A stretch of 44,179 nt of DNA from a phage. The stretch is from assembly GCA_032279465.1 (NCBI GenBank), contig GCA_032279465.1_4357.1. One strand, 5' to 3'. The translations under genes were made by a program, and so were the position numbers. Shown here piece after piece: positions 2,334 to 33,141 of the stretch; the first letter of the stretch is position 1, and each line of letters starts with the position of its first letter. The notes beneath the pieces are model-generated. The model was not told where the DNA came from. It searched no databases and saw only the letters and a program-made list of their open reading frames with translations.

Positions 2334-2364
2334 CTTCTGTCTCTCCTCTTGTTTGTGTAAATGA

Positions 2365-2394
2365 ATAGTAGCCTATTCTATCTTAGTGTGCAAG
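2365..2394 (-). promoter_or_regulatory. Sigma70-like promoter (type 1: TTGCAC-N18-TACTAT) with AATAG-N4-CTATT inverted repeat
   Basis: Minus-strand -35 TTGCAC (2389-2394), -10 TACTAT (2365-2370); inverted repeat 2364-2377; about 30 nt upstream of gene start 2333. Confidence 0.5.
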
Positions 2395-2551
2395 TAAATT
2401 TTATTGGTGTTTGTATTGTTGCATCTCCTGCAATAGTCGCTTCGATTGTTGCGTTTGATGGAAGTGTCGCCTTTTGACGACACTAAGTTAAAGTTGTACG
2501 CTGCCGTGTAGCAGCGTAAGTCACTCGGTAAAATCCCAAACTATTGACCTG

Positions 2552-2739
2552 TTACACCGGCGCCGGTGGTTCAGGTAAGGGCATCCAGTGCGTTATATCA
2601 CCGTGATATAAACTCTTTGCAGGCCCCAGTAGCCATCTGAATTAACACGCATAACCTCACAGCCAACAAAACAATCAGTTACAAGAACGTATTCATAAGG
2701 CTCCGGCATCCGCTCACTACACTTAATCCACTTGCTCAT
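2552..2739 (-). pseudogene. DUF551-like small protein, apparently frameshifted
   Basis: Frame from ATG 2739 gives MSKWIKCSERMPEPYEYVLV... then stops at 2593; the -1 frame continues ...HGDITHWMPLPEPPAPV to 2552, which is the hallmark DUF551 C-terminus recalled from memory. Confidence 0.4.
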
Positions 2740-2897
2740 AAATCGCCTCTCTTCTCAAATGCGCCAGCCATTACATTCGCACCAGCTTTCCACGCCCGCC
2801 ACGCGAGACGCGTCTTAACGTTCAGGTACTCTTTCTTCGAACCCTTATTAACCGGCAGACCCTCGACGATGGCCCACCGTTCGAATGCTTCTCTCAT
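2736..2897 (-). CDS. Hypothetical small protein (53 aa)
   Basis: ATG at 2897 overlaps upstream stop (ATGA); below ORF-track size cutoff. Confidence 0.3.
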   Translation of the reverse strand: MREAFERWAIVEGLPVNKGSKKEYLNVKTRLAWRAWKAGANVMAGAFEKRGDL

Positions 2898-3049
2898 ACC
2901 AGAACCTCGCATTCATCCCGATACACGAACAATAATGACCCTTTGTACTCAATCATAAAACCATAATGGTTGCTGCTGAACGCCAGAAAAACATCACCTA
3001 CCGAGATACCGAAATCTATAAGCCTGCGGTCAGTTATTCGAATTTTCAT
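2894..3049 (-). CDS. Hypothetical small protein (51 aa)
   Basis: ATG at 3049 overlaps upstream stop (TAATG); MKIRITDRRLIDFG... Confidence 0.3.
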   Translation of the reverse strand: MKIRITDRRLIDFGISVGDVFLAFSSNHYGFMIEYKGSLLFVYRDECEVLV

Positions 3050-3252
3050 TAACGGCAACCTCCCTCAGAGTCGTCGGCACGAGCATCATGATTCGATGCC
3101 GTTCGTATAGCCAGTAAGCTATTTAGCATTTGCTGGCTATCCATCGTAATAATTGTAATCCCGTCCGATAAATGCACCTCGTAGCGTTCAGCTACGAAAT
3201 ATATTTCCTCGAAATCATGATGTTTCAGTTCTTCAAATAATTCTTCCATCAC
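3049..3252 (-). CDS. Hypothetical acidic protein
   Basis: 67 aa ORF, coupled to flanking genes. Confidence 0.4.
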   Translation of the reverse strand: MMEELFEELKHHDFEEIYFVAERYEVHLSDGITIITMDSQQMLNSLLAIRTASNHDARADDSEGGCR

Positions 3253-3437
3253 TTCACCCTTTTAAATTTAAAATTGTTGCCGATGAGTTTTAACTCATTA
3301 GCTTCGTAATAAACCGAAGAAGTTAATCCGTCCTGCCTGATATAACGGATGATATAAGACCCTGGGTATACGACAGACTCTTTTCCGACAACACCAAAGC
3401 CATATGCTGTTTTCACCAACTGACCATTCTTAAACAT
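3249..3437 (-). CDS. Hypothetical protein
   Basis: ORF track 3249..3446; probable ATG at 3437 behind GGAGTGAGGG Shine-Dalgarno; first gene behind promoter 3472-3500. Confidence 0.4.
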   Translation of the reverse strand: MFKNGQLVKTAYGFGVVGKESVVYPGSYIIRYIRQDGLTSSVYYEANELKLIGNNFKFKRVK

Positions 3438-3471
3438 AACCCTCACTCCTCTGTCTCGTTTTGATAAGTGA

Positions 3472-3500
3472 ATAGTATCCTATTATGTTGGGGTGTGCAA
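3472..3500 (-). promoter_or_regulatory. Sigma70-like promoter (type 1: TTGCAC-N17-TACTAT) with AATAG-N4-CTATT inverted repeat
   Basis: Minus-strand -35 TTGCAC (3495-3500), 17-nt spacer, -10 TACTAT (3472-3477); inverted repeat 3471-3484. Confidence 0.55.
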
Positions 3501-3559
3501 GAGATTAGTTACGTTGCCGTTGTGATTCTTTCGTTTCTTAAAAGAGTACGCAACGCAGT

Positions 3560-3774
3560 GGGTGGGCGTTAGCCCACCCCAGCGGAGTGAAGTACTCTCT
3601 ATCTTGCTTACGGCAACTATAGAAACTTTTAATTATCAGTGACTTGGATATTTAGGCGGGATTAACAATAGACTTTGACCCTTCCGAAAGCGTCAGCGGA
3701 ACTACACTCAAGTGCCTAATGGCACGCGTTGCGTTCCCTGCCGCTCCGCGGTCGCTTGCGATATCTCACAAGCT
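3560..3774 (-). ncRNA. Structured leader RNA, copy A (putative antitermination/attenuator element)
   Basis: Non-coding; core 3665-3790 is a paralog of 35955-36078; predicted start near 3774 from promoter 3781-3809; 5' hairpin 3754-3773; covarying stem 3698-3702/3733-3737 enclosing hairpin 3712-3725; ends at GC hairpin 3560-3579. Confidence 0.45.
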
Positions 3775-3780
3775 CAGTGA

Positions 3781-3809
3781 AGCTTAGCATATTTTCAAGT
3801 AAAAGTCAA
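3781..3809 (-). promoter_or_regulatory. Promoter of leader RNA copy A (TTGACT-N17-TGcTAAGCT)
   Basis: Minus-strand -35 TTGACT (3804-3809), 17-nt spacer, extended -10 TGcTAAGCT (3781-3789); same architecture as 36069-36097. Confidence 0.5.
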
Positions 3810-3856
3810 TACCAGTAGCATCTTTTGTATTTTAGTAACTTTGCGTGGTGTTTTGG

Positions 3857-3885
3857 TTGCTTTTACATTCACGCTATCCTATACT
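3857..3885 (+). promoter_or_regulatory. Sigma70-like promoter for plus-strand early genes
   Basis: -35 TTGCTT (3857-3862), 17-nt spacer, -10 TATACT (3880-3885), about 30 nt upstream of ATG 3917. Confidence 0.45.
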
Positions 3886-3916
3886 CGTTTTCACCAAACA
3901 AACAGGAGATATAAAA

Positions 3917-4099
3917 ATGCAGCATTACATGACACAGAATGAAGTGGCTGAACGTATCGGGGTGACCCGTCAAACAATTAATAATTGGTTGCGCAGCGGT
4001 AAATTCCCTGATTGCTGTATTAAGGTTATGGGTCGCCGTTTACCAGGAACATTTGACCGTAATAAAGTTGAAGCATGGATTAAGGAGAACGTGAAATGA
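3917..4099 (+). CDS. Small HTH DNA-binding protein (AlpA/excisionase-like)
   Basis: ORF track 3845..4099; ATG 3917 behind AGGAG; helix-turn-helix segment NEVAERIGVTRQTINNWLRSGKFP. Confidence 0.6.
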   Translation: MQHYMTQNEVAERIGVTRQTINNWLRSGKFPDCCIKVMGRRLPGTFDRNKVEAWIKENVK

Positions 4100-29897: not shown

Positions 29898-30289
29898 CTC
29901 ACCTTGCTAGCTTCTTCGTTAATGAGTTGCTGGAAGCGGGACACGTTAGTCCTGACGAATCCTTGCGGGGCCTGTTGCGACCAGCCATACTCCAGCCGTT
30001 GTGCATACGGCAGGTTATTTGTCAGCGTGAACTCATGCCAGTCGGTGGCTTTCAGCACGAAACTTGTAGCGTTTCCGGTTGCTGTGTTCCCTGATTTATC
30101 CGTAGCATCCGTAATCCCGGAAGCAGGAGTACCGCCAGATGCCATCCAGTTCATGCGAAACCGACCAGTATCTACCGGACTCGCCTTTATAATAGCGGAA
30201 AACAGCTTGATAGACACCTGACGCATCACCTTCTCAGGGTTCTTCTTCGCCTTTTCCACGAACTTAGAGACGTCCAGCGCGAAACTCAT
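29894..30289 (-). CDS. Head-tail connector protein, HK97 gp10-like
   Basis: 131 aa; SPVDTGRFRMNWM segment resembles HK97 gp10 family. Confidence 0.5.
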   Translation of the reverse strand: MSFALDVSKFVEKAKKNPEKVMRQVSIKLFSAIIKASPVDTGRFRMNWMASGGTPASGITDATDKSGNTATGNATSFVLKATDWHEFTLTNNLPYAQRLEYGWSQQAPQGFVRTNVSRFQQLINEEASKVR

Positions 30290-30645
30290 TTTCTCACCTG
30301 AATAAAGTAGGACACAACATCATCGTTAACCACCTTCTTCTCAATGGCTACGACGGACCATTGCTCGCCGCCGAATTGCACTTTGTCTTCCATCTTAGGA
30401 ACGACGCTGTAATCGGCTTTAACAATCATGTCGCCAGCCTGAATCGTCGTACCGTTCACCAGACCCGCATTAACAGGAACCGGAACGGCCTTCAACGGCA
30501 ACACTTCATCCGCAGACCAGACGTACTCACCGAGAACTTCGTCCCACACTTTCGAGCCAGCGCGAATCAGAGATACCGTGCTACCGAATTTGGTTAACAG
30601 GCGTGTACCTACGCCTTGCATACGTTTACTGAAAGCTGTGCTCAT
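30286..30645 (-). CDS. Head-tail joining protein (putative)
   Basis: ORF track 30286..30699; probable ATG 30645 behind GGAGG. Confidence 0.4.
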   Translation of the reverse strand: MSTAFSKRMQGVGTRLLTKFGSTVSLIRAGSKVWDEVLGEYVWSADEVLPLKAVPVPVNAGLVNGTTIQAGDMIVKADYSVVPKMEDKVQFGGEQWSVVAIEKKVVNDDVVSYFIQVRK

Positions 30646-31259
30646 CAGGCGGCCTCCAGTCTCGAGATAACCAGTAGCGCGGATGGTGCTGTACCCCATG
30701 AGGTTACGGTAGCCGCTTGCGGGTATACGCCGCCGAAGTTGCTTCCGGAGCTATCCCGCATAATCTGAACGGCAAAAGTCTGGCCTGCTGTTGGGTTAAT
30801 AACAACGCGAGATTCAATCGGGATTGTGGTGTCCGCGCTTACCAGTTTCGTGGCTGCTGGTGAGCCGTACTGAGCGCCGTTTACTAAAATACGTGATAGC
30901 AGGATTGACGTTCCGCTGGCACCTGTGCAGCCTGCCTGTAACTTGATGCGAACGGCGTAGTTACCCGCGGTGTTGAATGTAACAAGCCCCGCGGCATTAA
31001 TCATTACCGGGTCGGATGCACTACCCTGAGCTGCACCGAAAGTTAACTGCAATGCCGTATCTACCGCGGTAGGCGCTTGGGTTACCGTAGACGCGGCACG
31101 GAGAACTTCAACCTCTTTAACACCTGGAGTGGCGTAAATAGGTGAGTCAGCCATCTGTGTCATTACCTCGCGCAACGCTGCTGGGGTAATAAGCCCGGTA
31201 GTGTTATCGGGGAGGTTTGCGCCGATAAGAGTAAACATCTCTGATTTAGTCTTCGCCAT
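30645..31259 (-). CDS. Hypothetical structural protein
   Basis: 204 aa Ala/Thr/Gly-rich protein in connector region. Confidence 0.4.
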   Translation of the reverse strand: MAKTKSEMFTLIGANLPDNTTGLITPAALREVMTQMADSPIYATPGVKEVEVLRAASTVTQAPTAVDTALQLTFGAAQGSASDPVMINAAGLVTFNTAGNYAVRIKLQAGCTGASGTSILLSRILVNGAQYGSPAATKLVSADTTIPIESRVVINPTAGQTFAVQIMRDSSGSNFGGVYPQAATVTSWGTAPSALLVISRLEAA

Positions 31260-31261
31260 TT

Positions 31262-31774
31262 TTAACCCCGGTACACATTAAATGAGAAGCCGTTGTTAAG
31301 ACCACCACACAGTAACGGGCGTAAGGCGTCGTCAGCGGCGGTAATCGCGGTTGTGGCTCCGCTGTTGCCGTTGTTGAAGTAGGTAACTGTTACCGCACCC
31401 TCTACACGCTCGGTCTGCACGGAACGTCCATCGGAGTTAGCCCGAACATCAGTGCCCGCCCCATACGTAACAGCGGCGATTACCTGCGCCCGGATTAACT
31501 GCGGTGGGATAACATTATCAGCTACGGTGAAGCCGTTTAGTGTTGTTCCCGTACGTGGGTACGCCAGGGACTGCTCGGCGGATACGCGGTGGCCACACAT
31601 CTGAGGTTCTGCAAGCCCGACATAAGTAGCACCGTTGCGCAAGGCCACCTCTGCGGCGGTATCGTCTTCCGGTAGCTCAAGGCCATAATTAGCCGCTAAC
31701 GCGCGGGCGTCAGCCAGTGAGATGTACGAATCGGCCCCTTCTATAATTTGACCTGTTTCTACGGTTAAGGACAC
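31262..31774 (-). CDS. Head-tail adaptor-like protein (putative)
   Basis: 170 aa, position between capsid and tail genes. Confidence 0.4.
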   Translation of the reverse strand: MSLTVETGQIIEGADSYISLADARALAANYGLELPEDDTAAEVALRNGATYVGLAEPQMCGHRVSAEQSLAYPRTGTTLNGFTVADNVIPPQLIRAQVIAAVTYGAGTDVRANSDGRSVQTERVEGAVTVTYFNNGNSGATTAITAADDALRPLLCGGLNNGFSFNVYRG

Positions 31775-31777
31775 TTT

Positions 31778-32431
31778 TCACCCCTTCTTACAGTTATCAA
31801 AGTGCCACCTCTTTAGAAGAGATAGCGCCCCTTCGGTTCCGCAATGTGGGCATACCCCGCGCGGGCGTTTCATTCCAGTAAGTTTATCTGAAATTTTCTT
31901 GACAGTCTCGCCCTTTAACGTATGGCCCTTCTTAAAACTTCCGGAGTTAGGTTTTCTATTAACCTTGCCAACGATTCTATTTGGGTCCGCGAACTGGCAT
32001 TTCTTGCAGCAATATTTACGCGCTCGTGATTTAAAACGGTAGGGGATCGGCTGGTCGCATGTTACACATCGTTGTGGGTTTGCCATGTAATGCTCTATTC
32101 TGGCTTTTCTACTTGCAGTTTCCCAGGTAGCAATTCCTTTATTCCACGCCTTTTGCCCTAGATGTGCTTGTCTGAGATTTTCTATACGTTTATCAGAAAA
32201 TTTAACACCAGTATTCAACCTGGACATCTCTATAGCCCAAGCCTCTTTCGCCAACTTAAAGGAATGTGAGTTAACTTTTGACCTCTGATTGTTTTTAGGG
32301 TTAATACACATAACCCTCCAGGCGAAAGCTAGTTCTTTAGTCCCGTGTATCTTATAGAGAAGCCAATGCGCAATAAAATGCTGTCTAGCGCTCAAAGATA
32401 CAATATTGTCAAAAGTATCTCCACCACCCAT
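31778..32431 (-). CDS. HNH homing endonuclease with NUMOD3-like repeats and C-terminal zinc finger; canonical start lies inside the HNH motif
   Basis: 217 aa from ATG 32431; upstream in-frame codons read NAKINPFSGYTEKHHIVPKC before MGGGDTFDNIVSLSARQHFIAHW with no ATG/GTG/TTG back to stop at 32492; GHTLKGETVKKISDKLTG NUMOD3-like; CPHCG; AT-rich. Confidence 0.6.
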   Translation of the reverse strand: MGGGDTFDNIVSLSARQHFIAHWLLYKIHGTKELAFAWRVMCINPKNNQRSKVNSHSFKLAKEAWAIEMSRLNTGVKFSDKRIENLRQAHLGQKAWNKGIATWETASRKARIEHYMANPQRCVTCDQPIPYRFKSRARKYCCKKCQFADPNRIVGKVNRKPNSGSFKKGHTLKGETVKKISDKLTGMKRPRGVCPHCGTEGALSLLKRWHFDNCKKG

Positions 32432-32582
32432 GCATTTCGGGACTATGTGATGTTTTTCGGTATACCCACTAAACGGATTGATTTTTGCGTTCTATATTAA
32501 CTGTTCATAGATTTTGGCGTAGTTCATGATTCACCCTTTTCAATGGAGGATGGATTCATTATGCCAACTACGCCAGATATTA

Positions 32583-32762
32583 CTATTCCTCAGACTTACG
32601 GCGACGACGCTTAGTGCCGCCGCCGTTGTTGTGCGCTTCTTCGTTGTCCGGTTGTGTTGCAACCAGTTCTTCCGCTTCTACCGCACCGCGAACAGGCATC
32701 ACCTGACCGTTAACAACGTCAACGTGTGTGTACTTTTCGCGGATTACATAATTATCAGCCAT
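32583..32762 (-). CDS. Hypothetical small protein (59 aa)
   Basis: ATG 32762 overlaps stop of Ig-like gene; basic C-terminus GGGTKRRRRKSEE; below ORF-track cutoff. Confidence 0.3.
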   Translation of the reverse strand: MADNYVIREKYTHVDVVNGQVMPVRGAVEAEELVATQPDNEEAHNNGGGTKRRRRKSEE

Positions 32763-33141
32763 GACCTTTCCTTATTACGGCCCCTTCGGTGCCGTTGTAT
32801 TGCCTCACAGTTGCTACAGTGCTGCTGGAGATAATATTACCATATACATCGTGAACAACCACTTTATACGTACCGGAGTCGGCGGTAGTGGTCGACGCTT
32901 TAACATAGGTGGCTGCGGTAGCCCCCGCGATGGCGTTGTTGTTCTTGTACCACTGATAGGAATATGGCGCCAGACCGCCGGTTACGGTTACGGTCAGTGT
33001 CATAGTTTCACCTGCGGTTACTACGGTAGTGGCCGCCGGTGCGGGTGAGAAAGACGCAGGAGAAATAGTCCCCGTGTCAATCTTAGCGCCTACGGTATCC
33101 CCGGAGACGCCGGTAATGCGACGTTTGATTACATCAACCAT
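32755..33141 (-). CDS. Ig-like domain protein (possible capsid decoration)
   Basis: 128 aa; TVTVTGGLAPYSYQWYKNNNAIAGAT resembles Ig-like domains of phage decoration proteins. Confidence 0.5.
   Translation of the reverse strand: MVDVIKRRITGVSGDTVGAKIDTGTISPASFSPAPAATTVVTAGETMTLTVTVTGGLAPYSYQWYKNNNAIAGATAATYVKASTTTADSGTYKVVVHDVYGNIISSSTVATVRQYNGTEGAVIRKGHG

Follow-up and report, generated by a model that had tools for sequence, protein, structure and literature searches.

Within a 44,179-nucleotide stretch of phage DNA (the window) from a Kagunavirus, a K1G-like coliphage of the Guernseyvirinae, a minus-strand open reading frame at 31778-32431 raises the question of where its HNH endonuclease gene begins, as gene callers start its 217-residue product at a methionine designated here as Met33. 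The original prediction was that this ATG, at 32431, is the only canonical start codon and lies inside the catalytic HNH motif, such that the gene either initiates at a rare AUA or AUC codon or is N-terminally decayed and probably inactive. Translation of the frame bears out several of the underlying observations: the HNH signature is complete, with NAKINPFSGYTEKHHIVPKC and then MGGGDTFDNIVSLSARQHFIAHW present downstream of a stop codon; no ATG, GTG or TTG occurs from that stop (32494-32492) to 32431; and a start at 32431 would omit the His pair, which is encoded upstream of that ATG. The gene is also AT-rich, with 42.5% GC content compared with 50.3% for the window.

Gene model and the amber at codon 12

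The segment at 31778-32431 proves to be the 3′ 87% of a 249-codon gene. The whole reading frame (249 codons plus stop; minus strand, 31778-32527) codes for a mobE-like HNH homing endonuclease of the K1G gp13 type, as supported by its translation, the CDSs annotated in phages K1G and MirsaeidiM_Esher4, and a match to PHROG 655. Its native ATG start codon (minus strand, 32525-32527) lies approximately 32-33 codons upstream of the Met33 ATG, and is supported both by the annotated CDS starts in K1G and Esher4 and by conservation of M1, Y3 and Y7 in the encoded protein. A Shine-Dalgarno-like sequence, AAAAGGGTGA (minus strand, 32531-32540), is positioned 3 nt upstream of the ATG and is invariant in 23 copies of the gene. 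The start codon at 32431 is therefore not the only canonical one, as an in-frame ATG with a putative ribosome-binding site lies upstream of the stop. The coding strand reads CCATTGAAAAGGGTGAATC then ATG AAC TAC GCC AAA ATC TAT GAA CAG TTA ATA TAG, followed by AAC GCA AAA ATC AAT CCG TTT AGT GGG TAT ACC GAA AAA CAT CAC, and, after this CAT CAC pair, by ATA GTC CCG AAA TGC ATG GGT; translation from the native ATG gives MNYAKIYEQLI*NAKINPFSGYTEKHHIVPKCMGGGDTFDNIVSLSARQHFIAHW, opening with MNYAKIYEQLI*NAKINPF.

Because the stop at 32494-32492 is in frame with the ATG at 32527-32525, it is codon 12 of one gene and not the end of an upstream gene. This codon is an amber TAG in the window (minus strand, 32492-32494) and TCG (Ser) in the orthologs, including both K1G and MirsaeidiM_Esher4 in a three-way alignment; on the coding strand the difference is a single A in place of C at 32493. 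Among 23 copies compared, A is present at this position only in the window (the same as Logan DRR388932), and C in the other 22. We conclude that a single C-to-A substitution very probably converted Ser12 to an amber codon in a mobE-like HNH homing endonuclease gene starting at ATG 32527, and generated a null allele, because translation from the native start stops after 11 residues; the amber is presumably fixed in the phage population. The first canonical start past the amber is the Met33 ATG (minus strand, 32429-32431), 60 nt downstream of the stop, and no Shine-Dalgarno-like sequence was found in the 20 nt upstream of it, ATCACATAGTCCCGAAATGC. Decay and probable inactivity were thus correctly anticipated as the outcome, but not the kind of decay: the start codon and ribosome-binding site are retained, and the lesion is a TCG-to-TAG change at codon 12.

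We give almost no credence to initiation at an AUA or AUC codon between the stop and Met33, from which a near-full-length and active HNH enzyme would be made. An open frame does run from 32491 and includes an ATC at 32482, but no Shine-Dalgarno-like sequence precedes this ATC, and its product would be without the conserved helix residues M1, Y3 and Y7; moreover, the ATA at 32497-32495 precedes the stop, and homologs begin MNY..IY. Initiation at ATC or ATA is extremely rare in E. coli. We reject rare-codon initiation because there is an in-frame upstream ATG with a Shine-Dalgarno-like sequence, which is the start in all orthologs, and because the orthologs have a sense codon at position 12. What the window carries is a fresh knock-out allele of a known and already annotated homing endonuclease gene, not an example of exotic initiation.

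The HNH core and other conserved elements

The product matches PHROG 655 'homing endonuclease' across residues 1-249 (1.8e-55), and there are 425 homologs at E ≤ 1e-5; its membership of the family is clear by sequence, and the intact enzyme is presumably an active nuclease. In an alignment of 50 homologs, with a mean column identity of 30%, residues E24, H26, H27, P30, G35, N41, H50, H54 and L57 are invariant, as are C226, C229, H242 and C246, and M1, Y3, Y7 and Y22 are conserved at 90% or more. From this alignment, the N-terminus (M1, Y3, Y7, E24, H26, H27 and P30) appears as the best-conserved part of the family. The HH pair is at positions 26-27 in 81 of 120 homologs, and MNY or MDY opens most of the 60 N-termini listed from those 120. 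A possible refutation raised with the original prediction, that the HNH motif of homologs normally begins at Met33, finds no support, as the homologs extend approximately 32 residues further upstream and Met33 falls below the 90% conservation level.

Residues 22-54 (minus strand, 32366-32464) form a predicted HNH beta-beta-alpha-metal core, as indicated by the 50-homolog alignment, a weak match of residues 16-55 to the McrA HNH domain (6ghc) in a PDB sequence search, and an AlphaFold model of an intact ortholog. The model, with a pLDDT of 84 overall and approximately 96 for residues 1-70, has a helix at residues 3-16, strands at 23-27 and 42-46, and a helix at 47-61, giving a beta-hairpin plus helix; the amber codon therefore falls in the N-terminal helix. 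With TAG at codon 12, the window allele has no uninterrupted CDS for the catalytic domain, and a product started at Met33 should be catalytically dead because it would lack the N-terminal helix together with the beta-strand bearing E24, H26 and H27.

The description of the gene as HNH-NUMOD holds for the family, with PF07460 (NUMOD3) in 40 of the 50 aligned full-length homologs, one of them 85% identical, and HNH in 31 of the 50; in the K1G-type protein itself, Pfam reports no NUMOD family even at E=10. The Pfam HNH family PF01844 scores 18.8-19.6 bits on the same protein, under its cutoff of 21.4. A central CxxC...CxxC zinc-ribbon-like segment (residues 153-181; minus strand, 31985-32071) is suggested by weak YacG and zinc-ribbon matches (E 0.005-0.16, all under cutoffs, from Pfam, NCBIfam and PDB sequences), and the invariant C226, C229, H242 and C246 form a C-terminal CCHC zinc-finger-like motif (minus strand, 31790-31852). 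Fold searches returned no significant match. In the intact enzyme, the HNH nuclease domain would be N-terminal, and the NUMOD3-family and zinc-ribbon-like elements would belong to a DNA-binding region at the C-terminal end.

A mobile cassette linked to the 5′ end of Ad1

A 951-nt query over the gene matched 53 phage records, three of which, representing two phages, include the gene, with DNA identities across the gene and its junctions of 99.1% for MirsaeidiM_Esher4 and 98.7% for K1G. Both phages annotate a 750-nt CDS coding for 249 amino acids, the same gene at the same genomic position: K1G gp13 (YP_009168793 / ADA82255) is described as 'homing endonuclease; similar to T6 mobE', and Esher4 XLM28264 as 'endonuclease'. 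These two copies are intact and code for Ser12, whereas the window has the amber, a G135W substitution, one synonymous change, and a T-to-C change in an upstream TATAAT. A tblastn search against annotated phages yielded 922 records, nearly all of them T4-like; the T6 gene beside nrdA has 31.9% identity over 99% of the query, the IME08 and PEi20 matches are annotated as mobE, and many matches span only the N-terminal 25-60%. The matches to the T6 gene and to mobE genes support the GenBank note of similarity to T6 mobE. The available portions of the literature on Kagunavirus and homing endonucleases do not discuss the gene, and a literature search for DRR388932 found nothing.

On one side of the gene are a 59-aa gene and a Hoc-like decoration gene, and on the other, 4 nt downstream, is the Ad1 head-tail adaptor gene, in agreement with the connector and decoration neighbors originally proposed. 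Comparison with related phages lacking the insertion, as had been suggested for mapping the homing site, locates the boundary: in the HNH-less phages Bas75 and KMB36 the stop of the 59-aa gene runs straight into the Ad1 ATG (GAGGAATAATTTATGCCG), and alignment of the junctions defines an inserted cassette of approximately 808 bp in the window (minus strand, 31775-32582), its ends lying immediately after the TAG of the 59-aa gene and immediately ahead of the Ad1 GTG. The junction AAGAAGGGGTGAAAAGTGTCCTTAACCGTAGAAAC is invariant. The cassette is absent from approximately 50 of the 53 matching Kagunavirus records, and the closest genome over 24 kb, vB_EcoS-22664BS2 (94.8%), is not among the three that include the gene.

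A packaging-associated HNH protein of the HK97 gp74 type, known from cos phages, would be expected to be conserved in all relatives, encoded beside terminase, and needed for packaging. We reject a packaging role of this kind because the gene is missing from most Kagunaviruses, and it is located between the head-decoration and adaptor genes.

The first 60 nt of Ad1 (minus strand, 31715-31774) form a patch that travels with the cassette. In this segment the window is identical to K1G and Esher4 (60/60) and matches HNH-less Bas75 and KMB36 at only 33/60 positions; the Ad1 N-terminus is MSLTVETGQIIEGADSY in carriers and MPLIVETGAIVPNADSY in HNH-less phages, and the carriers start with GTG instead of ATG. 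Further downstream in Ad1 the relationship is reversed, the window being approximately 90-100% identical per 30-nt block to the HNH-less phages and approximately 70-85% to K1G and Esher4. An ungapped pairwise comparison of 17 carrier loci from public assemblies gives the same picture: the last 590 nt of the HNH gene have a mean pairwise identity of 99.8%, Ad1 nt 1-60 are 100% identical in every pair, and Ad1 nt 61-513 have a mean of 87.7% and a minimum of 78.8%. Low minima in the other flanks are indel artefacts, as the comparisons were ungapped. This pattern of identity is what homing with co-conversion produces, and it mirrors T4 MobE. The prediction of a free-standing mobile endonuclease is supported by an intergenic cassette absent from approximately 50 relatives and by the co-converted Ad1 patch.

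MobE is a free-standing HNH homing endonuclease encoded between nrdA and nrdB (Wilson & Edgell 2009, PMC2790892); it nicks the 5′ region of nrdB in phages without mobE, and carriers hold protective polymorphisms there (PMC2790892). T-even MobE likewise combines an HNH domain at the N-terminus with a DNA-binding region at the C-terminus and is encoded by a free-standing intergenic gene, and its nick site in nrdB has a counterpart in the polymorphic patch linked to the gene at the 5′ end of Ad1. Unlike MobE, the Kagunavirus gene resides in a small siphovirus genome, has a head-tail adaptor gene and not nrdB as its neighbor, and is known here from sequence. I-HmuI, an intron-encoded nicking HNH enzyme of Bacillus SPO1-like phages, joins an HNH catalytic domain to a DNA-binding domain in an extended two-domain design (PMC2790892); the likeness is architectural only, with no significant sequence or fold match.

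By analogy with MobE, both the endonuclease target and the immunity polymorphisms probably lie in the 5′ end of Ad1, and we infer a target where the 59-aa gene meets the Ad1 5′ end. In a co-infection, the intact enzyme would nick or cut the DNA of an HNH-less Kagunavirus near this junction, recombinational repair would then copy the cassette along with ~60 nt from the start of Ad1, and the altered Ad1 5′ sequence would shield carriers from self-cleavage.

Recurrent null alleles

Only one contig, Logan DRR388932_34 (44,209 bp), is on record with exactly the window's 217-aa product; this contig, identical to the window over a 201-nt aligned stretch, is evidently where the window comes from. The exact 59-aa protein was found in no contig other than the window's own. 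The 90%-identity cluster holds intact 249-aa alleles on many contigs; two of these alleles, P0122 and P0127, are indexed in 57 and 30 collection blocks, respectively. It is not only in the window that the gene is broken. An A is inserted in an A5 run at codons 14-15 in ERZ13382839, ERZ13382879 and approximately 12 similar contigs, and again in SRR26419668 on a different synonymous background; an A5 run at codons 24-25 has gained an A in SRR22520414, and in DRR388490, where the insertion is accompanied by a G-to-A change and by V29D; and ERZ28581907 has lost a T from a T4 run at codon 50. With the window amber included, there are at least five independent inactivating lesions. Scans anchored on the 5′ side gave no hits in IMG/VR and one in JGI metagenomes, and those anchored on the 3′ side none in GTDB genomes and one in IMG/VR, numbers that are too few for an unbiased survey of lesions.

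Other variants are found both within and upstream of the gene. The Gly135-to-Trp change (GGG to TGG; minus strand, 32123-32125) is private to the window, with G in 22 of 22 other copies. Upstream, the window has TGGCATAAT in place of the TGGTATAAT present in all other copies but one (minus strand, 32558-32566), a segment that resembles an extended -10 element, in which the first position of the -10-like hexamer is changed from T to C (32563). All intact copies examined share an unaltered hexamer, and it differs only in the window and SRR22520414, both of which are broken. Because neither the window nor K1G gave a full sigma-70 site here in a consensus promoter scan, TGGTATAAT is at most a putative promoter element. 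One IMG/VR copy (L032) has an intact open reading frame and a G-to-T change at -8 in the Shine-Dalgarno region. The intact copies have six synonymous and three non-synonymous polymorphic sites, and the only HNH genes found next to the exact Ad1 protein of the window are broken ones, which carry two different lesions and come from otherwise mosaic phages. Taken together, these data fit purifying selection on functional copies with repeated recent loss of function.

That the TAG is an assembly or sequencing error, or a sub-population captured in the Logan contig, with the phage of the sample carrying an intact TCG, we regard as unlikely. The amber allele is present in one contig of one run only, Logan contigs are assembled automatically, and four changes in ~840 nt are private to the window copy; however, K1G has about as many changes of its own, substitution errors are uncommon in a consensus contig, the neighboring genes match those of relatives in length (349, 170, 204, 119, 131 and 137 aa), and inactivating lesions of this gene are common in independent assemblies.

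A second alternative is that the amber is leaky, either naturally or in a suppressor host, and permits a little full-length nuclease to be made, so that the gene is tuned down and not dead. MobE-type enzymes appear to be detrimental when overexpressed and are down-regulated in T4 (PMC2790892); the variants in expression signals noted above, in the -10-like box (window and SRR22520414) and in the Shine-Dalgarno region (L032), point in the same direction. Nonetheless, there is no known read-through signal, the TAG is not conserved, with TCG in every other copy, and the private G135W fits relaxed constraint. No suppressor tRNA is available from the window, which has no tRNA gene, and for this reason we also reject, as far as sequence can tell, reassignment of TAG or a phage-encoded suppressor. 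TAG is a normal though rare stop, terminating 2 of 48 open reading frames in a crude set as well as the adjacent 59-aa gene, and the other genes run to full length with no TAG inside them. Some protein could be made by read-through or by restart at Met33, but down-tuning by a leaky amber is highly improbable.

The distribution of the lesions suggests a third alternative, that the 217-aa protein started at Met33 is retained as a nuclease-dead DNA-binding protein, and that lesions upstream of Met33 have been selected; the proposed gains are protection of the target site, regulation, or the avoidance of polar effects on Ad1, an essential gene 4 nt further downstream. The five lesions all fall within nt 1-150 of the 750-nt gene, an in-frame codon for restart lies beyond every one of them (Met33, or Met73 in one copy, L013), and the same 217-aa protein (P0128) is present in copies with three different lesions. 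This part of the gene contains two of the three A5 runs, three of the 17 four-base runs, and 18% of the nonsense paths, and arithmetic from these hotspot counts puts the chance of such clustering at ~0.01. There is ascertainment bias, however, as the lesions were found through gene-call lengths among the 15 of 32 cluster members listed, and two of the three A5 hotspots are themselves in codons 14-25. Met33 is also without a Shine-Dalgarno-like sequence, there are further changes (G135W downstream in the window and V29D in DRR388490), and because the lesions look recent, an intact downstream reading frame is expected anyway. The clustering is a hint of selection and not evidence for it, and we consider a retained Met33 protein improbable. 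The broader proposal, that the recurrent knock-outs and the changes in the -10-like and Shine-Dalgarno sequences reflect selection in gut Kagunaviruses to turn the nuclease off while keeping the C-terminal part from Met33 or Met73, also seems quite unlikely; if true, the window amber would be one of several convergent solutions for switching off a costly nuclease.

We favor recent loss of function by simple inactivation. Degeneration is a phase of the homing-endonuclease cycle that has been discussed for phage elements (PMC2988022), and the amber and frameshift alleles would represent this phase. A cost of the nuclease may contribute to the loss, given that mobE could not be cloned and is down-regulated in T4; the lesions themselves recur, and the selective reasons are presumptive. 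A precedent is I-TevIII of phage T4, an HNH homing endonuclease described as defunct (PMC2790892, PMC2988022). Like I-TevIII, the window gene would be a natural inactive phage HNH homing endonuclease at the decay stage of its life cycle; I-TevIII is intron-encoded, whereas the window gene stands on its own and owes its inactivation to a single nonsense codon, the remainder being intact.

The corrected gene model, in which the 217-aa open reading frame of the gene callers is a nonsense allele of a 249-aa gene, touches the annotation of Kagunaviruses, which find use in phage therapy and synthetic biology. One nearly invariant cassette is found on mosaic phage backgrounds, with the 5′ end of Ad1 as its likely homing site, and the null alleles, at least five in public metagenomes, provide a natural series for the invasion and decay cycle of homing endonucleases in phages.

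Lesions and expression-signal variants of the HNH gene

Besides the amber at codon 12 of the window's mobE-like homing endonuclease gene (HNH gene; 31778-32527, minus strand), four further independent lesions disrupt this gene in the Logan/ENA contigs DRR388490, ERZ13382839, SRR26419668, ERZ13382879, SRR22520414, and ERZ28581907 (L007-L011 and L013). These are a gained A in one A5 run, a gained A in a second A5 run, a G-to-A change together with a gained A, and the loss of a T from a T4 run; all four fall within the first 150 nt of the gene. Because the ERZ contigs are of low coverage (~4-7x, according to the contig names), single homopolymer calls in them are individually provisional.

An intact copy of the encoded protein (P0123) is present in NCBI as MDU3284340.1, assigned to a metagenome-assembled genome labelled 'Cutibacterium avidum'; a coliphage contig misplaced there during binning is its most likely source.

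Upstream of the HNH gene, 29 nt 5′ of its ATG, lies the sequence TGGTATAAT (32558-32566, minus strand), which resembles an extended −10 element and is a candidate for one on the basis of its sequence. Its hexamer is constant across all intact HNH copies examined and is changed in only two broken copies, to CATAAT in the window and to TATAGT at the equivalent position of SRR22520414; a sigma-70 promoter scan did not call a full promoter at this box. Another expression-signal variant is found in IMGVR_UViG_3300007747_000049, where a G-to-T change 8 nt 5′ of the HNH ATG converts the Shine-Dalgarno-like AAAAGGGTGA to AAAATGGTGA; the HNH open reading frame of this copy is intact.

Other features of the window and its relatives

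The Hoc-like Ig-domain decoration gene (32755-33141, minus strand) codes for 128 aa in the window and shares 8 nt with the beginning of the 59-aa gene, whereas in relatives it codes for 113-119 aa and is followed by a 36-nt gap before the 59-aa gene. The difference points to an extended C-terminus, or to loss of a stop codon, in the window phage. The tail completion/Neck1 gene (3601-3950 in K1G; equivalent to ~29900-30700 in the window) is annotated in K1G in two forms, ORF14A and ORF14B, the latter as a two-piece join, and the two annotated forms imply a programmed frameshift.

The largest AT-rich island of the window (2334-3844; GC minimum 0.385) contains only small minus-strand open reading frames of 48-67 aa, presumably early genes. 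Beyond the HNH gene, no HNH or GIY-YIG motif is found elsewhere in the whole window.

The Ad1 start downstream of the HNH gene

All phages carrying the HNH cassette start the head-tail adaptor gene Ad1 at a GTG (31774 in the window, minus strand), 4 nt past the HNH stop codon, with a Shine-Dalgarno-like GGGG lying within the HNH 3′ end, whereas in phages lacking the HNH gene, Ad1 starts at an ATG preceded by GAGGA. With this arrangement in the carriers, early termination in the HNH gene could affect Ad1 expression, either through coupling or through polarity.
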